Source: Dhillonvirus LM40P1
DNA: 45,119 nucleotides
Sequence record: OZ035746.1
Direction: 5' to 3' (one strand)
Of the stretch, positions 3,500-37,333 are shown piece after piece. Under the pieces are notes generated by a model. The model worked only from the letters and a program-made list of their open reading frames with translations, ran no database searches and was not told where the DNA came from. The translations under genes were made by a program, and so were the position numbers. Numbering within the stretch: position 1 is the first letter of the stretch; the number at the start of each line of letters is the position of its first letter.

Positions 3500-4586
3500 C
3501 CAACGACTGGCGGATCGCATGATTCGCCGTCACATCTTCACCCAGCGCCTGAGCAATGAGCAGGCGCGTAAAGTGCTGGCAATGTGGCAAAAATTCCGTC
3601 CTACGTTACTGGGTAAGCTGACCGAATTACTTGAGGGCAAGAAGTCAATGAGCAATAAGGCGCTTACCACTCTGCTAACCCAAATCGACAAAACGGTTAA
3701 GACCGAACTGCGCGACGAGTTTAAAGTGCTGGCTGAAGGTCTGGCGGAGTTTGCCGATACCGAGGCTGAATATCTGACCGACACATTAACGGCAGCACTG
3801 CAACCTGCGCTTTCAGTCCCTGCCGTTGAGGTGGTTGGTGTAGTGACCGGTGCGCAGATTGCAGCGACGGCTATGAAAAATCCATTCCAGGGCAACACGC
3901 TTATGCAATGGCCTGATTCTCTGTCAGAATGGACCAGAACGCAGATCAGCAATCAGGTGCGCGCCGGATTTATCCAGGGCAAACCTACTATGCAAATTAT
4001 TGCGGACGTCAAGCGCGCGTTGGGCGGTCGTAGCGCGCAGGCCATTTCAAGCGTGGTCAAGTCCGCAGTCAACCACTATGCGGCGACCGCACGCGAATTA
4101 ATGGTAAAAGCAAATGATGATATTCTCGACTGTCGCCAGTGGCTTTCTACACTGGATACTCACACCTCAACGCTCTGTCAGTTACGCGATCGCCTGTTTT
4201 ATCCGGTTGATGTTACCCCCGAAACAAAAGGGAAACGGGACGGGAAAGTGGTGGCTGGATCACAGTATGGCGCTGGTCCGGGCAAGCTACATTATTGTTG
4301 CCGTTCTACCGAGACGTGGAAAGTCAAGGGTATGGAAGATTGGCCCAGTGGTAAGCGTCCGGCACTGAAGGCCGAAGCGGGTAAACTGCTAAGTGAGCAG
4401 GTCAGTGCTAAGACGGACTTCTTCTCCTGGGTACAGCGCCAGCCGCGGCATATCCTTGAGGAATTATACGGAGTGCAGCGCGCGGACCAGATCCTGCGAG
4501 GCGTGAAAGTTCCGACCATGTTTAACGACGCGGGCGAGCTTATGACGATTCAACAACTGAAAAATAAGGGGTTATGGCGTGATTAA
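3477..4586 (+). CDS. minor head / head morphogenesis protein (Mu F / SPP1 gp7-like)
   Basis: 369-aa ORF overlapping the portal 3' end; segment CRQWLSTLDTHTSTLCQLRD resembles the conserved F-like motif; position after portal. Confidence 0.55.
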   Translation: MTMPRKINQRLADRMIRRHIFTQRLSNEQARKVLAMWQKFRPTLLGKLTELLEGKKSMSNKALTTLLTQIDKTVKTELRDEFKVLAEGLAEFADTEAEYLTDTLTAALQPALSVPAVEVVGVVTGAQIAATAMKNPFQGNTLMQWPDSLSEWTRTQISNQVRAGFIQGKPTMQIIADVKRALGGRSAQAISSVVKSAVNHYAATARELMVKANDDILDCRQWLSTLDTHTSTLCQLRDRLFYPVDVTPETKGKRDGKVVAGSQYGAGPGKLHYCCRSTETWKVKGMEDWPSGKRPALKAEAGKLLSEQVSAKTDFFSWVQRQPRHILEELYGVQRADQILRGVKVPTMFNDAGELMTIQQLKNKGLWRD

Positions 4587-4887
4587 ATACGCAGCAGTCG
4601 GATTGATTCTCGGCCTTGTAATTGGGTTCTGGCAAGGTGACAACTATCGTGCTGGCGTGGTGGCGGAGGCGGCGCAGGAAGCGCAAGCCAAAGCCCAACG
4701 GCAGCAAACTAAGGTAATCCATGAGTCGGTACAGAAAGAGCAGGCCCGCGAAGTGGAGTTCCGCACAGTTGAGAAAGAGGTGATTAAATATGTCACGCGT
4801 CCTGATCGCGATAATTGTAAGTTTGATGCTGACCGCGTGCGGATCAAGCAACGTGCCGTTGATGCCGCTAACGGAATCAGCAATTAA
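4579..4887 (+). CDS. i-spanin (Rz-like), putative
   Basis: GTG start with AAGGGG RBS; N-terminal TM helix AAVGLILGLVIGFW followed by a charged coiled-coil-like region; overlaps a lipoprotein ORF in another frame. Confidence 0.5.
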   Translation: MIKYAAVGLILGLVIGFWQGDNYRAGVVAEAAQEAQAKAQRQQTKVIHESVQKEQAREVEFRTVEKEVIKYVTRPDRDNCKFDADRVRIKQRAVDAANGISN

Positions 4888-5020
4888 GCCGCCGTGTAAG
4901 TTTGAGTCGCCATCGGAAGATCCGGACGAAGATTTAGCGATTGATGTGCGAAATATGAAATGCGGGGCGGAGTTAAGGGCACAAGTGCTGGATTTGCAGA
5001 AATTAATTAAGGGGCCGTAA
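4790..5020 (+). CDS. o-spanin (Rz1-like outer-membrane lipoprotein), putative
   Basis: Signal peptide with lipobox LTAC (MSRVLIAIIVSLMLTACGSS); starts inside the 3' end of the Rz-like ORF in a different frame (overlapped spanin architecture); GAGGTGA RBS. Confidence 0.55.
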   Translation: MSRVLIAIIVSLMLTACGSSNVPLMPLTESAIKPPCKFESPSEDPDEDLAIDVRNMKCGAELRAQVLDLQKLIKGP

Positions 5021-5030
5021 TGGCCCCTTT
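5011..5030. terminator. hairpin terminator between convergent genes
   Basis: GGGGCCGTAATGGCCCC stem-loop followed by TTT; sits between the plus-strand Rz1 stop and the minus-strand gene stop at 5034; A/T-rich flank on the other strand. Confidence 0.55.
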
Positions 5031-5033
5031 CTA

Positions 5034-5795
5034 TTAGCGCGGAATACCGCAGATTTCGTTTAGTGTCTTCACGTCAAGCGCTACTGCCGTTGACTTCTTC
5101 TCTTCCTGCGGGATGAACTGTTTCACTTCAGGCCATGCCTTAATAAGTTTGGTGTCTGTAGTGTACTTATTCAGAGTACCCATAACTGACAATTTAAACT
5201 CATCGTATTTAGCACGTAAATCGCGGCGCGCCTTGTCGTTCTTATCCAGACGTTTGCAAAATTCATGCTCTGCCGGGTAATCTGCACGACCGCGAGGCTT
5301 GTAGATCGGCACTTGCTCACCTTCCGCGTTAATTTCCACCAGCGCCGTAAGTAGCGCAGTTTCAAACCCAGGTACGATTTCGCCAATGTCCGGGGCCATC
5401 GAGTTATTGTAGCGGTCTTCCCAGTAGCCTCGGTGACAGCGGCTGCTGTAGTTATCACCGCTCAATGACAGTGTGCGGATGTTACCACCCATGTTGACTT
5501 CGAACGTTGCATCGTACACAGCACCAATGCCGTGGGGCATGTCCTTGTTATGGCTGAAGGTTGCACGGCTGGCGTACACGCTTATGCTAAACATGCCGTT
5601 ATTTGTGTCTTGATAGCTGCGCATCATTTTCTGCAACCCAACGAAGCTGGTAACACCTTTCGGCATCTGATCCAGAGTGATATCCAGCGCCAGGTCGCGC
5701 GATTCGGTCATTAACTTTTTGGCCTGCTTCGTGATTTCGTGGCCTGCCAGGATGTTAGCCAGGATTTGCTTTTTAATGTCTTTAGTCAGTCTCAT
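5034..5795 (-). CDS. hypothetical protein (antisense gene inside the head module)
   Basis: ORF 5034..5858; start placed at ATG 5795 (MRLTKDIKK) with GAGGAAA RBS because the promoter at 5826-5854 overlaps the longer ORF; no recognisable domain. Confidence 0.6.
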   Translation of the reverse strand: MRLTKDIKKQILANILAGHEITKQAKKLMTESRDLALDITLDQMPKGVTSFVGLQKMMRSYQDTNNGMFSISVYASRATFSHNKDMPHGIGAVYDATFEVNMGGNIRTLSLSGDNYSSRCHRGYWEDRYNNSMAPDIGEIVPGFETALLTALVEINAEGEQVPIYKPRGRADYPAEHEFCKRLDKNDKARRDLRAKYDEFKLSVMGTLNKYTTDTKLIKAWPEVKQFIPQEEKKSTAVALDVKTLNEICGIPR

Positions 5796-5825
5796 TGTTG
5801 TTTCCTCGTTTGTTGGTGTGCAACC

Positions 5826-5854
5826 AATATATTGCAACCAATTAGCCAATGCAA
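5826..5854 (-). promoter_or_regulatory. sigma70-like promoter TTGCAT-N17-TATATT (recurring promoter family)
   Basis: Minus-strand reading: TTGCAT (5854..5849), 17-nt spacer containing ATTGGTTGCA, TATATT (5831..5826); about 30 nt upstream of the ATG at 5795. Confidence 0.5.
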
Positions 5855-5861
5855 GCAAATT

Positions 5862-5889
5862 TTGTGATTATTTTTATCACTGATAATAT
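5862..5889 (+). promoter_or_regulatory. candidate sigma70 promoter TTGTGA-N16-TAATAT for scaffold/capsid genes
   Basis: Hexamers at 5862-5867 and 5884-5889, divergent from the minus-strand promoter; upstream of the ATG at 5945. Confidence 0.35.
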
Positions 5890-5944
5890 TAAGGGCGTGA
5901 AGTCGAGCGGGTGGCCCGCTCTGCCACAATCCCTGGGGGATGTT

Positions 5945-6649
5945 ATGAAACTGACTAAAGCAGAATATGACGCGTTGCCTGAAGGCATGAAAGCATTGTT
6001 TGTTGCCGATGGTGACGGGTACAAGGCGACGTTTATGACCGCCGAAGAAGTACAGGCCGAGATCAAAGGTCTGAAGGATAACAACGCGAAGCTGGTAGGC
6101 GAGAAAAAGGCAGAAGCCGAACGCCGTGCCGAAGCGGAGCGACTCGCTAAAGAGAAAGAGGAAGCCGCAGCGCGCAAGAACGGCGACCTTGAAGCGATCG
6201 ATAAGTCCTGGCAGGACAAGTTTACTAAATACGATGCGGATACGAAGGGCAAAATCGAAGCCTACCGCAAACAGATTCACGATCTTACCATCGGCAGCAC
6301 TGCCAAAGACCTGGCATCAAAGCTGTTCGGTAAGAACGCTGGCATTATGCAACGCCACGTCATGGACCGCCTTGCGCTGGAAGAAGGCGAAGACGGCAGT
6401 CTGAAAGTGCGCGTATTGCAGGACGGCAAACCATCCGCACTGACTATGGAAGAACTGGAGAAAGAGTTCCGTAGTAACGAAGATTTCGCGTCCGTCCTGG
6501 CGGGTACGCCTGCCGGTGGTGCGCCGAGCAAACCGACCCATGTAATCGACGATCCGAAATCTAAGATTCAGATGGGTCATAGCTTCGGCATCACTGACTT
6601 GACCAAACAGGCCAGCGATATTATCGCCAAACTGGGCGACGACGAGTAA
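5945..6649 (+). CDS. head scaffolding protein (putative)
   Basis: ORF 5849..6649; ATG 5945 with GGGGGA RBS; charged helical sequence (AEAERRAEAERLAKEKEEAAARK); lies immediately upstream of the major capsid gene. Confidence 0.5.
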   Translation: MKLTKAEYDALPEGMKALFVADGDGYKATFMTAEEVQAEIKGLKDNNAKLVGEKKAEAERRAEAERLAKEKEEAAARKNGDLEAIDKSWQDKFTKYDADTKGKIEAYRKQIHDLTIGSTAKDLASKLFGKNAGIMQRHVMDRLALEEGEDGSLKVRVLQDGKPSALTMEELEKEFRSNEDFASVLAGTPAGGAPSKPTHVIDDPKSKIQMGHSFGITDLTKQASDIIAKLGDDE

Positions 6650-6654
6650 GCAGG

Positions 6655-6678
6655 TTGCCCGCGAAAGCGGGCAATTTT
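6655..6678 (+). terminator. intrinsic terminator (weak, between scaffold and capsid)
   Basis: TTGCCCGC-GAAA-GCGGGCAA hairpin followed by TTTT. Confidence 0.5.
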
Positions 6679-6746
6679 GCGAGCGTGAAAAATTAGGGTA
6701 ACATTAAAAGCACTGGGCGATTGCTCTCTACTCAAAGGATAAACTT

Positions 6747-20702: not shown

Positions 20703-20725
20703 AGGGGCCGTTTGGCCCCTTTCTT
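20703..20725. terminator. bidirectional terminator between J and the convergent minus-strand gene
   Basis: AGGGGCC-GTTT-GGCCCCT hairpin with a T-rich flank on the plus strand and a T-run on the minus strand; the stop of the minus-strand gene at 20724 lies in the flank. Confidence 0.6.
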
Positions 20726-21689
20726 AATACATATTAGGAAGGACAATCAGCGGTGTGGGTACGACAACATTGCGGTTAGGCATCTGGAATTGCTGCCGTG
20801 AATAGTTGCCAATGACGCGGTTTTTCGCTGCACCAACGACGCTACCCGCCATGCGGATCCCGTTCATTCGTACGTGGTTATAACCGCTATTGTTTTCAAT
20901 AAGCGCGCCCGTGTATGAAAGCTGAATAAGGCTGTTACCGATATTCTGCCACCCTGCGCTAAGGTCAACCGTCCCGTTAAACACAAACGGCTTATTGACG
21001 GTGGAGAATGTAACCTGGCCTGCGTTGTTGGTCATCGTGATACCGGTTCCGGGGCTTGGCGGTGTGTTATTGAATATAACCAATTCCATGTCAACGGCAG
21101 CACCCACATCATCAATCCCGCCGTAAGCCGCATTGCGGACGATAATACTGCCTCCATCGAAGCCAACCGACACGTTAGGGTCATCCCAACGGGCGAACGG
21201 AACACCTCCGACCGGCAGCGGCATACTTCCGTTCACATGGACGCGCTGCGCGTAGCGACAGGTCATCAGCCGAGCGACGTTTGATATGGCGGTGAAGTCC
21301 GTCGAGTTAGCCACCAGAAGCCCAGCATTACGCGACCCCACCGGCAGCACTTCCATAATCGTTCCCGCCCAGGTTGGAAGCCCGCTATAAGCGCCCAGCG
21401 CGTCAGCACCGTGCAGCGTAATTCCGCCATCACCATTTCGAGATATTGACGTTACAAACATCGGATCGGGTATTACCAGTGTTTGGTCGAACACTTCCAC
21501 CACTTCAACGGGATTAGTTAGCACGACTATAAGCTGCGATCCAGGCGTTAGCGGAGTATTGACTGTTAGCGTCTTGTCAGATTGGCAGCGCTGATTAAAA
21601 TTGGTACAAAAAGACGGAGCACGAAGCCCCGCCGTAATTTCCATTCTTGGACGTCCATCGTTGTATTCGATAAGGATACCTGCACCCAT
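20724..21689 (-). CDS. hypothetical beta-rich protein (321 aa), co-transcribed with the lipoprotein
   Basis: ORF 20724..21698; ATG 21689 sits directly after the lipoprotein stop (TAAATG) with a GGGAG RBS; Gly/Asn/Thr/Val-rich; no signal peptide seen; no domain recognised. Confidence 0.5.
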   Translation of the reverse strand: MGAGILIEYNDGRPRMEITAGLRAPSFCTNFNQRCQSDKTLTVNTPLTPGSQLIVVLTNPVEVVEVFDQTLVIPDPMFVTSISRNGDGGITLHGADALGAYSGLPTWAGTIMEVLPVGSRNAGLLVANSTDFTAISNVARLMTCRYAQRVHVNGSMPLPVGGVPFARWDDPNVSVGFDGGSIIVRNAAYGGIDDVGAAVDMELVIFNNTPPSPGTGITMTNNAGQVTFSTVNKPFVFNGTVDLSAGWQNIGNSLIQLSYTGALIENNSGYNHVRMNGIRMAGSVVGAAKNRVIGNYSRQQFQMPNRNVVVPTPLIVLPNMY

Positions 21690-21691
21690 AA

Positions 21692-21916
21692 TTACCACTC
21701 CCGTGATTTAACTGATACCGTACCAGAGAAGTTACCGTCTGAATCTGCCGCCAAACCGGTGAATCGCATGTCAATGTCTCCGGCAGCGACCTTTTGCCCG
21801 TCAACATAACGCAACATGCAGCTTCCCGCAACGTAGGTAACGCAATCGCCATTATGACGCTCAACAGCACAACCAGACAGCATAGCAACGACTAAAATAC
21901 TTAATAAAGTTTTCAT
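21692..21916 (-). CDS. small lipoprotein (74 aa), candidate superinfection-exclusion protein (Cor/Llp-like)
   Basis: ORF 21692..21961; ATG 21916 with AAGGAGA RBS; signal peptide and lipobox MKTLLSILVVAMLSGC; own promoter; sits between the J and tail fiber genes on the opposite strand. Confidence 0.5.
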   Translation of the reverse strand: MKTLLSILVVAMLSGCAVERHNGDCVTYVAGSCMLRYVDGQKVAAGDIDMRFTGLAADSDGNFSGTVSVKSREW

Positions 21917-21945: not shown

Positions 21946-21974
21946 AATATAGTGCAACCAATACGTGATTGCAA
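21946..21974 (-). promoter_or_regulatory. sigma70-like promoter TTGCAA-N17-TATATT (recurring family)
   Basis: Minus-strand reading: TTGCAA (21974..21969), 17-nt spacer containing ATTGGTTGCA, TATATT (21951..21946); about 30 nt upstream of the lipoprotein ATG. Confidence 0.5.
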
Positions 21975-26341: not shown

Positions 26342-26370
26342 AATATAGTGCAACCAAATACGGATTGCAA
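26342..26370 (-). promoter_or_regulatory. sigma70-like promoter TTGCAA-N17-TATATT (recurring family)
   Basis: Minus-strand reading: TTGCAA (26370..26365), spacer containing TTGGTTGCA, TATATT (26347..26342); overlaps the 3' end of the upstream gene. Confidence 0.5.
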
Positions 26371-26374
26371 CCAA

Positions 26375-26596
26375 TTATTTTAATTCCTCAATCAAATTGG
26401 CACGGACAATACGGGCCGAGAAGGCATCGCACACAAGATGGCAACGCGCCGTCATGACAAGCCAGCCGGTTAGGTCACGGCCTAGCAATTGCTCCGGGCG
26501 GCTTACCCGCAATACTTTATTTCCAGGGAAAACCTGGTAACGTTTAATGATCTCATCCACGACGCGCGGACTGCGATCGACGACTAAGATATTCAT
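26375..26596 (-). CDS. hypothetical protein (73 aa)
   Basis: ATG 26596 with AAGGAGA RBS; overlaps the 3' end of the methyltransferase gene. Confidence 0.45.
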   Translation of the reverse strand: MNILVVDRSPRVVDEIIKRYQVFPGNKVLRVSRPEQLLGRDLTGWLVMTARCHLVCDAFSARIVRANLIEELK

Positions 26597-27062
26597 GTAG
26601 TTCTCCTTCGCTCATTATCTTGATTTGTGCGCTGCCGTTTGGTGGCGCTTCTTCAAAGATTATCAATTGCTGACACTTGTTGTTGCTCGGTCCAACCTTA
26701 CCGGTGACGGCATGGATAAACCTGATTCGCCAGTCCAGCAATATAATCAGGTTGGCGGTTTTCCGCGCCAGTTTGGCCCACTTCGTGGTCGTGTCCTGGT
26801 TAAGCAGCATTACCGTTTTGCGACCCTGCGATGCGCAAGTCACCCACGGCAGCGGATCCGAATACGGCGGATTGCACCATTTCCACCCGTTTAGCTCTGA
26901 CCAGTCCGCATCAAGCGCGCTGTGCTCTTTCGTGAAGTAGCGCGGTAGCAGATGGTTGTGGTCACTAGCCGCCATGTCATAGCGGAATTTAAACGCCTTG
27001 CGCAGTGGCTTAAATAAAGCTGGCGGCGTGCGCCAGCTATCCTTTTGCTCATTCTCCGTCAT
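26553..27062 (-). CDS. DNA N6-adenine methyltransferase (phage Dam-like)
   Basis: ORF 26553..27284; start placed at ATG 27062 (MTENEQKDSWRTPP...); catalytic NPPY motif in WKWCNPPYSD. Confidence 0.7.
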   Translation of the reverse strand: MTENEQKDSWRTPPALFKPLRKAFKFRYDMAASDHNHLLPRYFTKEHSALDADWSELNGWKWCNPPYSDPLPWVTCASQGRKTVMLLNQDTTTKWAKLARKTANLIILLDWRIRFIHAVTGKVGPSNNKCQQLIIFEEAPPNGSAQIKIMSEGELHEYLSRRSQSARRG

Positions 27063-27513
27063 GCTGCGGGTCCAGTGCGTAGAGTGGGATTTGTTTAGCG
27101 CTTTCCCACAGGCGTTTAATCCGCTCCTGTTCGCCGCTACCCATAGGGCGAATATCGTTGCTGTAGTTGCCGTTGGTTGTGTCGCGCCACGCAATAAGAA
27201 CCAGGTCTTTACGGTCAATCTTCGTTGTGCGGCCTTTCGGGCGGACGTACTCTTCTGCGCGTTTGCATTGCTCGCGCAGGGCATCGGCGGTTATCCTGGT
27301 GAGCGATACGGATGTTGTGTACCCGGTGCGCTGCATAATGGTGGTTAGCTCGCCCAGCAGTTCGAAGCGTTCTTCTAACTCCAGCAATTGCTTGTTGGTG
27401 TCCTGGAATTTTTTATACATATCATCGGCGTGGCTACGTGCTTCTTCCGCTTTCTCGCGCGCCTCAATACACTGTGCTGCCCAATACGCTTTTTCTTCTT
27501 GTAAAATTTTCAT
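27049..27513 (-). CDS. hypothetical protein (coiled-coil N-terminus)
   Basis: 154-aa ORF; GGAGA RBS; TAATG overlap with the upstream gene. Confidence 0.45.
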   Translation of the reverse strand: MKILQEEKAYWAAQCIEAREKAEEARSHADDMYKKFQDTNKQLLELEERFELLGELTTIMQRTGYTTSVSLTRITADALREQCKRAEEYVRPKGRTTKIDRKDLVLIAWRDTTNGNYSNDIRPMGSGEQERIKRLWESAKQIPLYALDPQHDGE

Positions 27514-27755
27514 TAGTTAATCTCCGTCATGCGAATTTCTTTGCGCGGTATAAATTTGCCGTTCATTTCAACCCAGCAAGTGCCATAGCGCCACTGGGTG
27601 TTACGGCCTGTTTGTTCGGGGTAGACGGCCTGGCATTCATATTTATTGGCCTGGTAGATCCACACCGTCGGCAGCAGGAAACAAAAGAATAAGAACAACG
27701 CCATCCATACCCAAAAACGTAAGTCACCGTCGTAATCAAAAAAGAATCGTTTCAT
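27513..27755 (-). CDS. small membrane protein (80 aa)
   Basis: GAGGA RBS; hydrophobic helix FWVWMALFLFFCFLLPTVWIY. Confidence 0.45.
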   Translation of the reverse strand: MKRFFFDYDGDLRFWVWMALFLFFCFLLPTVWIYQANKYECQAVYPEQTGRNTQWRYGTCWVEMNGKFIPRKEIRMTEIN

Positions 27756-27772
27756 CGTTAAATCCTCATATT

Positions 27773-27803
27773 AAAAAAAAAGGGCGTTCCCTTCGGAACA
27801 CCC
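27773..27803 (-). terminator. intrinsic terminator (minus strand) between promoter and gene
   Basis: Minus-strand RNA GGGUGUUCC-GAAG-GGAACGCCC (9-bp stem including a G-U pair) followed by nine U (plus-strand A-run 27773-27781). Confidence 0.65.
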
Positions 27804-27805
27804 TC

Positions 27806-27834
27806 AATATAATGCAACCAATCTCGCAATGCAA
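27806..27834 (-). promoter_or_regulatory. sigma70-like promoter TTGCAT-N17-TATATT (recurring family)
   Basis: Minus-strand reading: TTGCAT (27834..27829), spacer containing ATTGGTTGCA, TATATT (27811..27806); predicted start falls inside the 5' arm of the terminator stem. Confidence 0.5.
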
Positions 27835-30795: not shown

Positions 30796-31054
30796 CCAAT
30801 AAATCAGCGTCGTGAATGTTGTCGATTACGCGAACGTCGGCCCCGCGCTTCGCCATGCGCTCATGTTCACGTACCTGGTGCGGCTTCGGCTTACCACCGG
30901 GGCGCTTCACTTCAACGAATACGACTCTGCCGTTGATGATGATAATCAGGTCGGGAGCGCCGGTACGCCCTTCCCATGCCATTTTACGGCAGAATCCACC
31001 TGCCTCTTTTACCTCTTTCATCAGGTGACTTTGCACCTTGCCTTCAGGAGTCAT
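30776..31054 (-). CDS. VRR-NUC domain nuclease
   Basis: 92-aa ORF; PD-(D/E)xK core APDLIIIINGRVVFVEVKRPGGK; TAATG overlap with the polymerase gene. Confidence 0.65.
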   Translation of the reverse strand: MTPEGKVQSHLMKEVKEAGGFCRKMAWEGRTGAPDLIIIINGRVVFVEVKRPGGKPKPHQVREHERMAKRGADVRVIDNIHDADLLVAELVA

Positions 31055-33342
31055 TATTTTCTATACCTGTACATGATGTCGCCTTCAGCGGCGAGCGGGA
31101 AGCCCTTAGCCCACACCGGCAGATCGCACATTAACCGGCATAACTCTTCGGTCGTGTAATCGTCCGTGTCCGGCACTTCGGTGATTAATTCATCGTGCAC
31201 CGACAGGACGATTTCGTATCCCGCCGCTTCGACGCCAGGCATTGCCCATGCGAGAATATCGCGGCACAGCGCCTGTACAATGTTCTCTGTCAGTTTGCCG
31301 CCGTAGGTGTACTGGAAGCCCCACTGGCGCGTCGTCTGATTCTCGCCCTGATATTTAATGCGGGTGCTGGTTTTCTTCTTGCCGGTGTCTTCGTCAACTT
31401 CAGTAGTTACTGACAGCGCAATGCCAGGATAGCTCATGATACGACCCGACGGCAACTCGACTTTCAGCCACCAGCCGGGCGCGTCTGGGTCGTCCCGCTC
31501 ATCGTCAAACGTCGGGTCGTGCTTAGCCTTCGTGCGCATGATTTTAAGCGCCTGTTTGCCGTCTGGACGCACGTTAGCACCGGCCCAGTATGATTTGCCC
31601 GGATTGCGGATTGCGCACAGCACAGCGTCTTCCAGTTCGGCCCAGAATCTAACCGTTTCCGGGTGGGACTCACGCCACATACGCTTGATCGCATCGCAGG
31701 TAAGCCACACGTTCTTCGGCAGGATGTAAGTCGGTCGCTCGTCTTTCTTGCCAGGCTTCGGCGGACGCTTCGCTTCATTAATCCTCGCGTACTCGTACCC
31801 GCGTTTCGCTGCGGCCCATATGTGATCCGGGAACGTGCCTTTCATCACGTCTGCCATCGCATACAGGTCAAGACCCAGGTTTTTGGCAAACTGCAAGAAC
31901 GCCGCAACGCCACCACCATAGCCGAGGCCCAATTCACAGGCCTTACCGATCTGGCGGAGGTCTTTGCGGTTGGCCTTGATATAATCCGGGTCGAGGCCGA
32001 ACATCTTACCGGCAGTTTCGCAATAAATATCGCGTCCCGCCTTAAAGACCATCAACGCAGTTTTCTCGCCCGCAATCCAGGCAAGGCCGCGTCCTTCCAC
32101 GTTGGAGTAGTCCGCTACAACAAACTTCTTACCCTTAGCCGGGATAATGCAGCCGCGTACGGTCGATGCTGTCAGCTTAGATATGTCGTACGCCCAGTGT
32201 GCGGTCCCGCGTAATAGGGAATTGATGCCGTTGGTTAGCATGTGCGACCGGACCCAAAACGACACGTCGCTTTCACCATCACGGCGCTTGATCTTGCCTT
32301 CGTGGTCGTCGCTGTACTCGCCACGCGCCAGGTTTTGAGGCTGAAAACTTTTACCGGCCCAGCGCAATGTTCGTTTAGCACCACCATACTGAAGACAACC
32401 ACGGCGGCGACCGTCAGACGACAGACCGTTAACGAGCGGATTGTATTTGGTCGACGCCGTTGATGACGCACCGAGGCGCATTTCAATCAGAACTTTGCCC
32501 TCGTCCGGGAAGTCCGGGTCTTCCAGCAAATCATTCAGTGTGGATTTCTGCGCGTTATGGATAGTGAAAGCTGGCGCAATATCTCGTAACAACGGCAGGA
32601 AATCATTTCCGGTCAGCTTACCGCCAAACTTCTCCATCGCTTCTTCTTTCAGTTCTTCCTTGTGCGCTTCAACGGCCTTGATGGCGGCGTAGGCCAGTTC
32701 GGTGTCCACGTTGAAGCCGCGGTCATTGATCAACTGGTCAATTGCCAGTATCTGGTCTTCCTTCGGAGTATTACCCCAATCCGGGATACGCCAGTACACT
32801 TCACGCATCGCGATAATATCGAAGCGTGCATACTTGAGGAATTTGGCCCACTCTTCCGGGTGAGTCTCGCGAGTGTAGCGACGGACTTTGTAAGTCTTCG
32901 GCGTTGGCTTACAGAATCGCTTAATCAGCGCCTTGCCCGCTTTATCTTTCGCATGTTCAGCGTCAACGCCCAATACCTGGCATTGCATGTCAAGGCTGCC
33001 GGGGAGGGCGTGGCGGAAGGCCATAATCATGGTGTCTTCGATCTGGCAAACCGGCAGGTCAATACCCCACTTCTCACGGATAGCCAGGCGGTCAAACAGG
33101 AGGCCGTTAGCCATTACGATTTTTGCTTTCTTGCGGACTACCGCACGCAATGCCTTACGCAGTTCACTCGGCATCTTCGGCGATTCAGTAGCGTCCCACG
33201 TCTGAACACGGCCTTCATCAATGGCGTAGGTGCAGATCATGATTTCCGTGGTTGGGTGTTCTGCATACGCGTATGCGCCGACCTTCTTCAGATCAACGCC
33301 GCTAAACGTTTCGGTATCGAGGAATAGTCGTTCTAAGTTCAT
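31054..33342 (-). CDS. DNA polymerase, family A, with 3'-5' exonuclease domain
   Basis: 762-aa ORF; exonuclease-type N-terminus LFLDTETFSG; Pol A motifs GLGYGGGVAAF and LSVHDELITEV. Confidence 0.8.
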   Translation of the reverse strand: MNLERLFLDTETFSGVDLKKVGAYAYAEHPTTEIMICTYAIDEGRVQTWDATESPKMPSELRKALRAVVRKKAKIVMANGLLFDRLAIREKWGIDLPVCQIEDTMIMAFRHALPGSLDMQCQVLGVDAEHAKDKAGKALIKRFCKPTPKTYKVRRYTRETHPEEWAKFLKYARFDIIAMREVYWRIPDWGNTPKEDQILAIDQLINDRGFNVDTELAYAAIKAVEAHKEELKEEAMEKFGGKLTGNDFLPLLRDIAPAFTIHNAQKSTLNDLLEDPDFPDEGKVLIEMRLGASSTASTKYNPLVNGLSSDGRRRGCLQYGGAKRTLRWAGKSFQPQNLARGEYSDDHEGKIKRRDGESDVSFWVRSHMLTNGINSLLRGTAHWAYDISKLTASTVRGCIIPAKGKKFVVADYSNVEGRGLAWIAGEKTALMVFKAGRDIYCETAGKMFGLDPDYIKANRKDLRQIGKACELGLGYGGGVAAFLQFAKNLGLDLYAMADVMKGTFPDHIWAAAKRGYEYARINEAKRPPKPGKKDERPTYILPKNVWLTCDAIKRMWRESHPETVRFWAELEDAVLCAIRNPGKSYWAGANVRPDGKQALKIMRTKAKHDPTFDDERDDPDAPGWWLKVELPSGRIMSYPGIALSVTTEVDEDTGKKKTSTRIKYQGENQTTRQWGFQYTYGGKLTENIVQALCRDILAWAMPGVEAAGYEIVLSVHDELITEVPDTDDYTTEELCRLMCDLPVWAKGFPLAAEGDIMYRYRK

Positions 33343-33509
33343 TGTTTCACCCTTACCACGGCCTCGGCGTCCCCTTTCAGAGAGTAGATGCCGTCGGTTA
33401 TTGTGATTATGTCGTCGTTCTGTTTCACTTCAGCAACCGTGAAGTATTCGCCCAGGAATTTGGACCACACGCGCATTCCCGGTTTCACATCTTTAGCTTT
33501 AATTCTCAT
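33339..33509 (-). CDS. small hypothetical protein (56 aa)
   Basis: ATG 33509 with AGGA RBS; ATGA overlap with the polymerase start; not in the ORF track (under 60 aa). Confidence 0.35.
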   Translation of the reverse strand: MRIKAKDVKPGMRVWSKFLGEYFTVAEVKQNDDIITITDGIYSLKGDAEAVVRVKQ

Positions 33510-33523
33510 TACATTGTCCTATG

Positions 33524-33545
33524 AAAAAGCCCGCATAAAGCGGGC
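33524..33545 (-). terminator. intrinsic terminator (minus strand) after the SSB gene
   Basis: GCCCGC-UUUAU-GCGGGC hairpin followed by TTTTT on the minus strand. Confidence 0.6.
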
Positions 33546-33565
33546 TTGAGTAGTGGGCTTTGCCC

Positions 33566-34339
33566 TTAGCGGCGTCGACGTTTACGTGGTGCTTCGTCTT
33601 CGTCATCGTCGTCATCTTCATCGCGTGACTTGCGACGTTTACGCGGCTTATCGTCTTCATCGTCGTCATCTTCATCACGGCGGCGCTTAGACTTGCGCGG
33701 TTTTTCATCTTCATCATCGTCGTCACGACGTTTTGACTTTTTGGATTTACGCGGTGCTTCGTCTTCGTCATCATCCAGGTCGTCGTCAGAGCAATATGCA
33801 CCGCCGCCGCCACCGAAGGAATCCCCATCATCACGGAAGCGCATACCCAGCAGACCACAGCCTAAGCCTTTGCCGTTGGTATTGTTCCAGGCCCAAATAT
33901 CTAAGGAAACGTTGCAATAGCAACCGGAATAGATTTCCTTCCCTTCGATTTCGTCGCCGTCGATGGTCAGACCCTGCTCCGTCTGCTTCTCGCCTTCGGA
34001 AGTCTGGATGATCGGCTGTTTGAATGATTTAGCGTTGATATACAGCTTACCTTCAAACTCTTCCGTTACTTCTTCACGCTCATCACCATCTCGAACGGCA
34101 CATTCTTTCGAATCCTGCGCGTAGTGGCGGTCCATCCACTTATCGGCGTTCTTCTCAGACTTCAGTTTTTCGGTGAGCACTGCGCGTGCCGCCGCTTCCA
34201 CTTTGTCCACCTGCGGATCTTCTTTATCAAGAATAATCACCGCACGATATGCCGGTTTTTGTCCATCCTGTTTAGGGGTATCACGCTCCCAAATTTTCAG
34301 GAAGCATACACGTACATTTTTCAGGTTGACTTTAGCCAT
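33566..34339 (-). CDS. single-stranded DNA-binding protein (DUF2815/gp2.5-like) with repetitive acidic-basic C-terminal tail
   Basis: ORF 33566..34432; ATG 34339 (MAKVNLKNVRV) with GAGGAA RBS; C-terminus of tandem DDDDEDE-APRK-type units. Confidence 0.5.
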   Translation of the reverse strand: MAKVNLKNVRVCFLKIWERDTPKQDGQKPAYRAVIILDKEDPQVDKVEAAARAVLTEKLKSEKNADKWMDRHYAQDSKECAVRDGDEREEVTEEFEGKLYINAKSFKQPIIQTSEGEKQTEQGLTIDGDEIEGKEIYSGCYCNVSLDIWAWNNTNGKGLGCGLLGMRFRDDGDSFGGGGGAYCSDDDLDDDEDEAPRKSKKSKRRDDDDEDEKPRKSKRRRDEDDDDEDDKPRKRRKSRDEDDDDDEDEAPRKRRRR

Positions 34340-34435
34340 TTTCCAATTCCTCATTTCACATGTATCGGGGTTATTATAAGCCACCCCGTCCGGCTTGGTT
34401 GCTAATGTACTTGGTTGCGTTTCCGCGGTCAAGTG

Positions 34436-34669
34436 TTATTTATCAAAAAGTTTTAAAATCAGGTCGAGATATTTGTGCAGCCACACCAGTGGAGGGCGGT
34501 GCACGTTGTTTTCCATCCAGTTCAAACAGGCCTCGTTATAGCCGTCGTCCCATAAGCGGGATGGGTGGCGAATCATCCAGGCCAGCGCCAGCAGACCGCC
34601 GCAGGTATGTACTACGAATCCCAGCGCCGCAAGCGGCAGCACCATAATCATTGCCAGAATCTTATTCAT
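34436..34669 (-). CDS. small membrane protein (77 aa)
   Basis: ORF 34436..34795; ATG 34669 with GAGGA RBS; hydrophobic N-terminus ILAMIMVLPLAALGFVV. Confidence 0.4.
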   Translation of the reverse strand: MNKILAMIMVLPLAALGFVVHTCGGLLALAWMIRHPSRLWDDGYNEACLNWMENNVHRPPLVWLHKYLDLILKLFDK

Positions 34670-36092
34670 CGCCCAAATCCTCGTCGCTTGCTTCTTGCCA
34701 TTCCGGGCGCGGGTCGTCAACTGGTGCCAGGACCGGTTTCGCCGGCGCACGCGTGATTTTATCTTGCAGTTTCGCCCACACTTTCGGTTTCTCATCCTTC
34801 AGCACCTTCTCGGCATCAGTAGGGCTGATTAATGATTCCTTGTACATCAGGTTGCGCTTGATCCGGGCCGTTGTGAATACGGCGATAACTTCGCTTTCAT
34901 CCTTCCACTTACGCGCACCTTCACGACCAGCTACCAGCTTCAGGCCCAGCGCTTCGCCGTCACCGGCTAACACTGCTTTGAATACGGCAGCCTCGATCGC
35001 TTTGATGTGCTGGCGCATGGTTTCCAGGCCGTCGTAAGCCTTCTTCAGTTCTTCCGTGGTCATAGCACCGGCTGGCGCTTCTTTCTTTCCACGCTTCGCA
35101 CGTCGGGCAGCTTTCCGGGCTTCGAGGTCCATGTTCTGGTCGTGGTTTTTGCATTCTTCCTCGGCGTCAATGCTTACATCGTCGCCCAGGTCTTCGTTGG
35201 TTGCCGTTGGTGGCGTCATTGTGTCGATGGCGGCTTTAGCGCGGGCACTACATTGGTCCGCAAATCGACACCACTGACACGCATCGGCGCTCGGACGGAA
35301 GTCTGCACGGGTGAGATTCTTCTTACCCTTAGCGAGGGCATCCAGGGCGGCTACTGCGCGTTTTGCTGCGTACTTGGCGAAGATTTCCAGTGCTTCCACC
35401 GAAATATCCCACTCCGACGCCCCGCCGCAATACGGCTGGAATATGACCAAGCGCACGGTTGTTATGTCGTACATCTTTTGCAGCTTGCGCAGCAGTCCGA
35501 GCGCATACAGCATAAGCTGTTTGTTCTCTTTCGCCTCGACCTTATGGCGTCCGGTCTTCAGGTCGCCCACAATGAGCATGTACGTGCCGTCGGTCTTCTT
35601 CATTACCATAACCATATCGGCAGTACCGAAGGTCTTGATCGCTTCGCCGTCAATCTCGTAGCCTTTGTGCAGGACGCGAGTCAGATCCGCGCGCATCTCA
35701 AGCTGGACAAACTCGGCAACTTCAAGCAGCGGTCGCCAGTGGTCGATGTACGCGTCGCACTGTTTCACCATGTCGTCAGTTACCAGGATGGCGTCCTTAG
35801 GTGCTTTCGCTGCCGCTTTAACTGGTCCTTTACCCTGATTTTCGACGTAGCACCCTTTATATGTCTTCGCCGTGATGTGGTCTTCGCCTGCAATGATGCG
35901 GTTTAGTACCACTTCAGATACGGTGTGCATACTCGTACCGTTGATCGCGGCTTGCCCGGATTCGTTCGGAATACCTTTCTCCACCACCAGGGCGGCGGGA
36001 CACCCCATCCATTTTTTAGCGCCGGATGGGCCGAGTAATGAGTGTTCTGTATTACTGCCGGATTGCGTCTTGCGCTTCGCTTTGATAGCCAT
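34662..36092 (-). CDS. PD-(D/E)xK exonuclease, Cas4/DUF2800-like, with charged C-terminal extension
   Basis: 476-aa ORF; nuclease core GTADMVMVMKKTDGTYMLIVGDLKTG and QLMLYAL; Cas4-type Cys arrangement (N-terminal C plus CQWCRFADQC). Confidence 0.55.
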   Translation of the reverse strand: MAIKAKRKTQSGSNTEHSLLGPSGAKKWMGCPAALVVEKGIPNESGQAAINGTSMHTVSEVVLNRIIAGEDHITAKTYKGCYVENQGKGPVKAAAKAPKDAILVTDDMVKQCDAYIDHWRPLLEVAEFVQLEMRADLTRVLHKGYEIDGEAIKTFGTADMVMVMKKTDGTYMLIVGDLKTGRHKVEAKENKQLMLYALGLLRKLQKMYDITTVRLVIFQPYCGGASEWDISVEALEIFAKYAAKRAVAALDALAKGKKNLTRADFRPSADACQWCRFADQCSARAKAAIDTMTPPTATNEDLGDDVSIDAEEECKNHDQNMDLEARKAARRAKRGKKEAPAGAMTTEELKKAYDGLETMRQHIKAIEAAVFKAVLAGDGEALGLKLVAGREGARKWKDESEVIAVFTTARIKRNLMYKESLISPTDAEKVLKDEKPKVWAKLQDKITRAPAKPVLAPVDDPRPEWQEASDEDLGDE

Positions 36093-36579: not shown

Positions 36580-37083
36580 TTAGTCTTCCAGTTCGAAATA
36601 AGTTTCGACAATTTCTTTCAAGTCGTGGTGGAAGTCTTCCACGTCTTCGTCGTCCAGTTTAGCGACGGACTTGATTTCGTACGACTCCAGCAGGTCGTCA
36701 AATTCGTCGTTAGCATCGTCATCGTCGCCGCCTGCAATGATTGCCGCGTATTGTGCAATTTCATCGCGCATTTCTTTCAGCGGATCGGCGTCTTTCTTAG
36801 CCTTCCCTTTGCCCTTGCCTTTGGCTGGCTTTTCTTCCGGTTCGTCTTCGTCGTCGTCATCTTCTACAACTTCTTTTTTCGCCTTGCCCTTAGCCGTGGA
36901 CTTCTTAGCTGGCTTCTTATCTTCCTGCTCGTCATCTTCGTCTTTGGCTTCTTCTTTCTTAGCCTTAGACGGTTTCTTATCTTCCTGCTTACCAACGGCA
37001 GCGCCCTGGGTTTCGTAATGTTTAGCGATGGTTTCCAGTGCTACTACGCCGCGAGTAATCAGATTCAGGATTTGCTCAAACAT
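36580..37083 (-). CDS. acidic low-complexity protein (167 aa), first gene of the early minus-strand operon
   Basis: ORF 36580..37320; ATG 37083 with GGAGA RBS, about 40 nt downstream of a TTGACA-N18-TATTAT promoter; Lys-rich and Asp/Glu-rich blocks; very acidic C-terminus. Confidence 0.5.
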   Translation of the reverse strand: MFEQILNLITRGVVALETIAKHYETQGAAVGKQEDKKPSKAKKEEAKDEDDEQEDKKPAKKSTAKGKAKKEVVEDDDDEDEPEEKPAKGKGKGKAKKDADPLKEMRDEIAQYAAIIAGGDDDDANDEFDDLLESYEIKSVAKLDDEDVEDFHHDLKEIVETYFELED

Positions 37084-37130
37084 GGTGTGTCTCCGTTTAG
37101 TTAAAAGTGAATGTCGTTTCGACGAGGTGA

Positions 37131-37160
37131 ATAATAGATTGGTTGCAGGAGGGGTGTCAA
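37131..37160 (-). promoter_or_regulatory. strong sigma70-like early promoter (TTGACA-N18-TATTAT)
   Basis: Minus-strand reading: TTGACA (37160..37155), 18-nt spacer containing CTGCAACCAATC, TATTAT (37136..37131). Confidence 0.5.
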
Positions 37161-37170
37161 CAACTAATTT

Positions 37171-37204
37171 AAAAAAAAATCCCCGAAGCAAAACGCAACG
37201 GGGA
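37171..37204 (-). terminator. intrinsic terminator (minus strand) immediately upstream of the early promoter
   Basis: Minus-strand UCCCCG-UUGCGUUUUGCUU-CGGGGA hairpin followed by nine U (plus-strand A-run 37171-37179). Confidence 0.5.
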
Positions 37205-37274
37205 TAACCATAAGAGACAATGAGACTGGTTTTATTATTACACGCGCGCGCACCCGTTTCAATATACAAAACAG

Positions 37275-37303
37275 TTGACACCGGTTTGATTTGGGTGTAG
37301 TTT
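37275..37303 (+). promoter_or_regulatory. candidate sigma70 promoter TTGACA-N17-TAGTTT for the plus-strand early operon
   Basis: Consensus -35 at 37275-37280; -10-like TAGTTT at 37298-37303; about 30 nt upstream of the ATG at 37334. Confidence 0.4.
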
Positions 37304-37333
37304 CTCTGGTCATTAACCAACAGGAGACGGATT

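Follow-up and report, generated by a model that had tools for sequence, protein, structure and literature searches.

Dhillonvirus LM40P1 (sequence record OZ035746.1) carries a minus-strand open reading frame (ORF) of 253 codons that runs against the late head genes around it. It was analysed within a stretch of 45,119 nucleotides, here called the window. The initial annotation of this DNA had placed the ORF at 5034-5795, antisense between the spanin pair and the scaffold gene, with a good ribosome-binding site (RBS), a terminator and its own promoter of a recurring family. Each of these features was found again (Table 1). Translation confirmed the frame, and pairwise dN/dS (the ratio of nonsynonymous to synonymous substitution rates) was 0.08-0.14 where dS was measurable, showing that this is a genuine protein-coding gene. 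As its product belongs to the phage family Nmad5 (see below), we refer to the gene as nmad5.

The longest reading frame opens at TTG 5858, upstream of the -10 element of the predicted promoter. Given this, and because the N-terminus MRLTKDIK is common to the whole family (R2 in 87% and L3 in 81% of 70 diverse homologues), the start was assigned to ATG 5795. The RBS is kept as GAGGAC in phages SECphi18, SM_S22 and SM_A8. The hairpin that follows the gene begins 5 nt past its stop codon and has a folding energy of -15.9 kcal/mol (z -2.3); its minus-strand U-tract is interrupted. The convergent lipoprotein/o-spanin ORF (4790-5020, plus strand) has its stop codon inside this hairpin, which may terminate that ORF too. 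The spanin pair itself (4579-5020, plus strand) belongs to the head module and is separated by about 37 kb from the holin/endolysin genes at 42.1-43.1 kb; it is noticeably less conserved (67-76% amino acid identity) than the neighboring head genes. No Rfam family matched in the window.

The predicted promoter agrees with the sigma-70 consensus at 8 of 12 positions, and a generic sigma-70 scan misses it. Its element TTGGTTGCANTATATT occurs as four exact copies in the window (at 5826, 21946, 26342 and 27806), every one on the minus strand. When up to three mismatches were allowed there were five matches against 0.93 expected, and none of 100 shuffles reached five. The element is also kept upstream of the nmad5 orthologues in SECphi18, SM_S22 and SM_A8, and this conservation, together with the copy number, shows that the recurring promoter family is real. 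The leader TATATTggttgcacaccaaca is retained even in SM_A8, where a different gene comes next. The conserved TTGGTTGCA beside the -10 element looks like a regulator site, and its second copy is a possible operator, which would give it a regulatory role. Where nmad5 and the scaffold gene diverge, the DNA between them holds a perfect palindrome, GTGAT-N7-ATCAC (5864-5880); its arms co-vary to GCGAT...ATCGC in SECphi18 and SM_S22, suggesting either a dimeric operator or a hairpin in the RNA.

Table 1. Positions of nmad5, its signals and related features (window coordinates unless another phage is named)
Feature	Position	Strand	Remarks
nmad5 coding sequence	5034..5795	minus	253 aa + stop; stop codon 5034-5036; 0 internal stops (translation)
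Conserved C-terminal module	5037..5195	minus	residues 201-253; signature T-x2-K-L-x3-W-P-E ... P ... L-N-x3-G-[LI]-P
Codon AAA, Lys216	5148..5150	minus	residue changed to Glu in published Tmn-escape mutants
Central fast-diverging region	5196..5645	minus	~residues 51-200; helix 3 and beta-rich domain, Dhillonvirus-specific insertions
Shine-Dalgarno GAGGAA	5802..5807	minus	6 nt 5' of ATG; read from sequence
Second TTGGTTGCA copy	5818..5826	minus	overlaps final T of -10, extends into start of 5' leader
Predicted promoter TTGCAT-N17-TATATT with internal ATTGGTTGCA	5826..5854	minus	one of four exact TTGGTTGCANTATATT copies
GC-rich hairpin terminator	5009..5029		between convergent genes; 8 bp, 6 GC, loop of 5
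Promoter family TTGCAWT-N7-ATTGGTTGCANTATATT	5826-5854, 21946-21974, 26342-26370, 27806-27834	minus	four members
DUF6453 gene	20724-21698	minus	downstream of cor-like lipoprotein gene; antisense island in tail module
Anti-Tmn homologue	27049-27513	minus	154 aa, 60% identical to SM_S22 CDS0035; PHROG 10530, mislabelled 'DNA ligase'
Nmad5 homologue, SH2026Stx1 (L262)	4638-5261		first gene after N
Nmad5 homologue, mEp235 (L005)	3692-4315		first gene after N
Nmad5 homologue, Kapi1 (L263)	3632-4315		first gene after N

No motif had been recognised in the protein at first, a statement that profile searches overturned. The protein aligns with Pfam PF18757 (Nmad5) over its whole length (E = 4.3e-43; 148.2 bits vs a cutoff of 27), with residues 1-252 spanning profile positions 1-206 of 206, and it also matches PHROG 1965 (E = 4.1e-50). 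It is 100% identical to WFD55423.1 of Escherichia phage Ioannina, annotated 'nucleotide modification associated domain 5'. The family signature (an N-terminal R-L-T helix and the C-terminal T..KL...WPE...P...LN...G[LI]P), whose residues are conserved in 60-100% of the 70 diverse homologues, is complete. Judged by sequence, the ORF is the Dhillonvirus orthologue of the phage family Nmad5. PADLOC and NCBIfam gave no match for the protein. The gene is therefore already a known one: it is named, annotated in the near-identical Ioannina and partly characterised in sister phages. Membership of PF18757 supplies a name and not a mechanism.

An exhaustive profile search (E up to 0.001) returned 648 cluster representatives, mostly of 180-230 aa, which align at the N-terminal helix and over the C-terminal ~90 residues. 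Typical PF18757 members have about 205-220 aa. The LM40P1 protein contains all positions conserved across the family but is some 45 residues longer, through insertions in its central beta domain; opposite its residues 71-100 and 121-160 the other Nmad5 proteins mostly have gaps. Only the C-terminal module is common, at the level of tblastn, with Stx, lambdoid, Pseudomonas, Vibrio and Bordetella phages. A confident AlphaFold2 model of the protein (pLDDT 91.3, pTM 0.84) starts with helices at the N-terminus, is rich in beta structure in the middle, and continues through a long helix (178-208) to small helices in the C-terminal part and a short helix at the very end. The homology search and structure prediction proposed in the initial annotation thus yielded a family and a confident model; in fold comparison no solved structure shared the fold, and there was no match to an enzyme or a structural protein.

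Several other identities were considered and dismissed. The anti-DarT factor AdfA belongs to RB69/T4, not to SECphi18, and has no relation to this protein. Ksap1, the KpAvs2 trigger encoded by a Dhillonvirus, has 74 aa and is a separate protein; at the equivalent position, between the Dam and DUF6378 genes, the window has a 73-aa ORF (26375-26596, minus strand). What the Ioannina paper calls a 'unique gene' encodes a tail fibre and is not nmad5. A 246-aa protein (36580-37320) at the position that Nmad5 occupies in one of our comparison loci (L015) is not a paralogue (hhalign probability 0.4%), and anti-Tmn is likewise unrelated to Nmad5 (hhalign probability 0.5%).

We then looked at the locus across the genus. 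The stretch 4500-6700 is 99.9% identical to Ioannina and 81-82% identical to about 120 other Dhillonviruses. Full-length nmad5 was found at the same locus in approximately 143 Dhillonvirus records (tblastn, at least 60% amino acid identity), and it is therefore not variable cargo. The LM40P1 gene has the traits of this orthologue group: it lies between the o-spanin and scaffold genes, is antisense, has the same promoter and encodes Lys216. The sole absence found among the records is a natural deletion in Teewinot (L007), where ~660 bp inside nmad5, equivalent to window positions 5058-5718, are missing; the promoter, the first ~33 codons and the final few codons, now out of frame, are kept. In SM_A8 (L019) an extra gene of 104 aa (5852-6166) stands between the conserved promoter/leader and nmad5, making the antisense unit there a two-gene one.

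The gene had been taken for an accessory cargo gene. The accessory part of that claim holds, as nmad5 has its own predicted promoter and terminator, is non-structural and dispensable, and is linked to the defence system Tmn (see below); the cargo part does not, as the distribution over ~143 records is not patchy. In LM40P1, sequence features predict an accessory gene in a monocistronic antisense unit, expressed from a sigma-70-like promoter opposite the late head genes. Presence in all relatives was what the initial annotation had expected of a conserved core structural protein; the gene is present in relatives, but its product is not structural. That nmad5 encodes a head-assembly or structural protein we consider extremely improbable. 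The opposite strand, the separate predicted sigma-70-like promoter and terminator, the viability of deletion mutants and the mostly early or replication operons of the homologues all speak against it, as does the lack of similarity, by sequence or fold, to capsid, scaffold, portal and decoration proteins. These outweigh the position between the head-morphogenesis/spanin genes and the scaffold gene, the genus-wide conservation, and the one other siphophage in which an Nmad5 gene is likewise antisense within the structural module.

Orthologues of nmad5 have been studied in the Dhillonviruses SM_S22 and SM_A8 (Yamashita et al., 2025; PMC11846954). On Escherichia coli expressing Tmn, a KAP-family NTPase defence, SM_A8 and an SM_S22 phage without anti-Tmn gave spontaneous mutants that escaped, and these have one common substitution in nmad5, K216E in SM_A8 and 'K296E' in SM_S22 (PMC11846954). 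The substitution was both necessary and sufficient, as its reversion restored Tmn sensitivity and its introduction gave resistance. Deletion of nmad5 from SM_S22, in an anti-Tmn deletion background, gave phage that were viable and still Tmn-sensitive, and cloning of nmad5 failed with apparent toxicity (PMC11846954). Dispensability, cloning toxicity and escape through K216E have thus been shown by others, and by orthology they are expected likewise for the LM40P1 gene. Locus, promoter, RBS, orientation and K216 are the same as for nmad5 of SM_S22 (CDS0006) and SM_A8; however, the proteins are only 62-63% identical, with LM40P1 in a second allele class. The initial annotation had recommended the gene as a place to seek a new function; the deletion, cloning-toxicity and defence-plating experiments are largely published already for these sister phages (PMC11846954).

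This analysis also corrects the SM_S22 annotation. CDS0006 in GenBank (L003, 2036-3040; 334 codons) is 80 codons over-long at its N-terminus and reads through its own promoter into the opposite-strand scaffold gene. This accounts for the numbering 'K296E' vs K216E, and for the description of the SM_A8 gene as having a 'truncated N-terminus' (PMC11846954).

The finding that a clean nmad5 deletion stays Tmn-sensitive is incompatible with Nmad5 as the sole trigger of Tmn. For this reason we regard as very unlikely the explanation that wild type Nmad5 is recognised by Tmn and that K216E merely abolishes this recognition, even though escape mutations frequently map to the sensed protein and a figure legend in the published study names nmad5 'Tmn activator' (PMC11846954).

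To compare the divergence of nmad5 with that of other genes, amino acid identities were determined against SM_A8 and SECphi18. These were 62-63% for nmad5 vs 89-92% for the adjacent head-morphogenesis, scaffold and capsid genes; for the replication proteins PolA, DUF2800 and the protein that binds single-stranded DNA (SSB) they were 93-94%, 87% and 81-82%, respectively. Between SM_A8 and SECphi18, dS was 0.56-0.63 for nmad5 vs 0.13-0.34 for its flanks, and it was saturated for the window allele. With dS about 2-4 times that of the flanking genes, and dN/dS of 0.08-0.14 vs 0.02-0.13 in them, both dN and dS are raised, which argues for old alleles exchanged by recombination and not merely for relaxed constraint. 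The 38 cluster representatives compared fall into two allele classes. Pairwise identity within the main class is 81-98%; the window class, made up of two metagenomic clusters besides Ioannina and LM40P1, shares 61-65% identity with it. The gene is under purifying selection and split into two deeply diverged allele classes.

Divergence between the classes is restricted to approximately residues 50-200. At the nucleotide level the central region is 52-67% identical to SECphi18, vs 73-87% for the gene ends and the first kb of the flanking plus-strand genes. Column entropy is highest at residues 51-90, and residues 241-253 are invariant in the 38 Dhillonvirus-type sequences. This pattern suggests that nmad5 may evolve in an arms-race-like manner.

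Across the 70 diverse homologues, the positions conserved in at least 60% are R2, L3, T4, I7, I11, N14, G104, G113, P167 and L193 in the N-terminal and central parts and V204, T213, K216, L217, W221, P222, E223, P229, T236, A239, L245, N246, G250 and P252 in the C-terminal part. No His, Asp, Cys or Ser reaches 60% in this set. K216 is conserved in at least 90% of Dhillonvirus-type sequences and in 64% family-wide, and it adjoins the near-invariant T213, L217, W221 and P222. The helical parts of the protein are basic (+4.6, +4.8) and the central domain is acidic. A role as a DNA mimic was unsupported, the isoelectric point of the whole protein being 8.8 and the family median 6.8.

To place these features in context, we examined the genomic surroundings of Nmad5 relatives. 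A scan of IMG/VR with a degenerate DNA pattern gave 120 loci, 118 of them with a true Nmad5 ORF (98% specific). With the same pattern only 12 of 120 hits (10%) were true in a much larger genome collection, and we draw no conclusion on distribution from that genome scan. At 40 of the 118 IMG/VR loci the N antiterminator gene is just upstream, and cIII with a Rad52, RecT or ERF recombinase gene is downstream; 17 further loci lie beside a DUF2800, SSB and PolA module. Placement in an early operon near replication or recombination genes thus covers 57 of the 118 loci, the remainder being left unclassified, and the labelled neighbors at these 57 belong to regulatory, replication and recombination families.

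The order N-Nmad5-cIII was also seen in the annotated phages mEp235, Kapi1 and a Stx1 phage. In the lambdoid and Stx phages cIII, kil and the recombination genes follow the Nmad5 homologue, which usually bears a hypothetical annotation. The Stx1 phage has Nmad5 together with Gam, Bet and Exo; a function analogous to Gam (anti-RecBCD) was unsupported, as Stx phages encode both. Salmonella prophages and several metagenomic phages carry the gene amid or beside genes for a DUF2800/PD-(D/E)XK nuclease, an Enc34-type (gp2.5-like) SSB and PolA, and some relatives are directly upstream of PolA. A P2-like accessory island has an Nmad5 gene with HicAB and SocA genes.

These surroundings bear on the name of the family. 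NCBI calls relatives 'Nmad5 family putative nucleotide modification protein', and the 2025 paper describes the protein in the same sense. Nmad5 would then modify DNA or nucleotides as an enzyme, or be the obligatory cofactor of an enzyme that does, and the resulting modification would be what Tmn senses. The gene does lie in a thymidine hypermodification cluster in Pseudomonas M6-like (Yuavirus) phages, where it adjoins a thymidylate-synthase-like hydroxymethylase gene; the association behind the name was confirmed solely for these phages. In the window no base-modification gene lies near nmad5. Dam- and Dcm-type methyltransferases are encoded elsewhere in it, and a Pfam scan that covered 20 of the window proteins and left the other, mostly small, ORFs aside gave no match to a base-hypermodification enzyme. 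The 57 loci in the N-cIII slot or beside DUF2800/SSB/PolA also sit poorly with modification, as do the absence of a conserved catalytic-type residue set and of any enzyme fold match. Moreover, the nmad5 deletion keeps Tmn sensitivity, which speaks against Tmn sensing a modification made by Nmad5. We therefore judge this explanation to be quite unlikely.

The same neighborhoods lend more weight to a different proposal, that Nmad5 is an accessory subunit (loader, bridge or regulator) of the phage replication or recombination machinery, and that Tmn senses indirectly an intermediate altered by K216E. The relatives next to DUF2800/PDDEXK, Enc34-type SSB and PolA genes in Salmonella prophages and metagenomic phages fit this, as does the operon of lambdoid phages, in which the gene heads a set of genes carrying a recombinase. 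The window encodes the same module (31054-36092) as well as a SNF2 helicase and an AAA_25 primase-helicase, the helical parts of the protein are basic, and many defence systems sense replication proteins or intermediates. However, nmad5 lies outside the module in LM40P1, and in Dhillonviruses it is uncoupled from the replication operon with a promoter of its own. It is dispensable, as seen in the SM_S22 deletion and in Teewinot, and at 62% amino acid identity it evolves far faster than PolA, DUF2800 or SSB. Lambdoid and Stx phages carry the gene without any phage polymerase, and it is also found in the P2-like island. On balance we hold a replication accessory role to be unlikely, though favored by the genomic context.

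Given that nmad5 shares its promoter type with other genes, we determined what lies behind each family member. All four promoters precede minus-strand accessory cassettes. The promoter at 21946-21974 is followed by a gene for a cor-like lipoprotein (21692-21916) and then by the DUF6453 gene, the product of which matches a PHROG of the category 'moron, auxiliary metabolic gene and host takeover'. The DUF6453 gene has no counterpart in SM_A8 or SECphi18, so the antisense island in the tail module is variable. Behind the promoter at 26342-26370 are a DUF6378 gene and a gene of 191 aa, and behind that at 27806-27834 are genes for an 80-aa membrane protein, a homologue of SM_S22 CDS0035, and Dam. 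In the last cassette a terminator-like hairpin with a run of nine T (~27775-27797, minus strand) stands between the promoter and the first gene (27513-27755). This arrangement is also kept in SECphi18, and the hairpin may be an attenuator, or a terminator of the upstream HNH gene overlapping the promoter.

CDS0035 of SM_S22 most probably corresponds to the anti-Tmn ORF35 of the published study, and SM_A8 lacks it, in agreement with the published statement on anti-Tmn (PMC11846954). Anti-Tmn acts on the same defence as the Nmad5 variant, and its LM40P1 homologue lies behind an nmad5-type promoter; the two proteins differ in that wild type anti-Tmn inhibits Tmn and wild type Nmad5 does not. Small sequence differences are reported to abolish anti-Tmn activity (PMC11846954). 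That one promoter type is common to nmad5 and to exclusion and anti-defence cassettes is suggestive of a link in regulation. A literature search found no transcriptome or expression data for Dhillonviruses.

Our preferred reading of these data, held tentatively and at slightly less than even confidence, is that Nmad5 is an early, non-enzymatic protein for interaction with the host or its defences, in which a conserved docking frame holds a variable central domain, and that K216E is a gain-of-function retuning. The protein would act by binding rather than catalysis. Its frame would comprise the helix at the N-terminus, the basic long helices and, at the C-terminus, the W-P-E...L-N...G-L-P module with K216, and would hold the fast-evolving acidic central beta domain. 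Nmad5 would be made early, alongside the products of the same-promoter cassettes (the cor-like exclusion lipoprotein, and the anti-Tmn homologue with Dam), and would engage a host or phage component of DNA metabolism or defence. K216E would retune a conserved binding surface so that it blocks or masks whatever Tmn acts through. A gain of function of this kind is proposed as the reason why the point mutant escapes Tmn and the deletion does not. We infer the early timing, the binding mode and the nature of the target from the features described above.

Two known systems offer parallels to this proposed binder. In AdfA (anti-DarT1) of phage RB69, the missense change R164H switches an inactive anti-defence allele on. 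The genetic logic is that of Nmad5 K216E, where a missense change escapes while loss of the gene does not, and it suggests a latent binder that is switched on or retargeted; the likeness is purely genetic, as the sequences are unrelated. The second parallel concerns position. The accessory genes lambda ral and P22 ral/gene 17 occupy the N-to-cIII slot of the pL operon, which classically serves early host-interaction functions, and the lambdoid/Stx Nmad5 homologues, as the first gene after N, lie in this slot. Ral has no homology to Nmad5, however, and Dhillonvirus nmad5 sits in its own unit in the head module and not in an early operon.

A number of points weigh against an early binding protein with a retuned surface. 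The promoter is predicted at the level of a consensus. Gene-wide dN/dS is well below 1, and the allele divergence could reflect old recombination and not selection by defences. The SSB, PolA and recombinase neighborhood suits a role in DNA metabolism as well as it does counter-defence. Anti-defence activity is so far tied to the K216E variant and not to wild type Nmad5, and the published toxicity and cloning test may have been done with the over-long SM_S22 ORF. Finally, the conserved polar residues R2, N14, K216, E223 and N246 could constitute an unconventional active site.

A broader form of the binding hypothesis extends to the whole family, and we consider it less probable. Nmad5 would be a widespread family of early phage 'adaptors', not concerned with nucleotide modification, with a conserved docking frame at the N and C termini that offers a swappable central domain to targets in host immunity or DNA metabolism. 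The allele classes of Dhillonvirus would then be two alternative specificities, and K216E would reveal a latent capacity to neutralise the KAP-NTPase Tmn.

For LM40P1 itself, sensitivity to Tmn is not predictable from sequence, because the phage combines wild type K216 with a diverged anti-Tmn homologue, a consideration for phage-therapy engineering. What this analysis adds to the published work is a set of leads: the non-catalytic conservation, the N-cIII slot, the promoter type common to several cassettes, the split into two allele classes, and the corrected SM_S22 annotation. The name Nmad5 appears misleading, as the family has no catalytic signature and many of its operons have no modification gene among their labelled neighbors. 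The homologues that come first after N in Stx-converting and lambdoid prophages are a reason for attention to the family. As a single-residue change in Nmad5 defeats Tmn, the partner of Nmad5 could illuminate both Nmad5 and Tmn.

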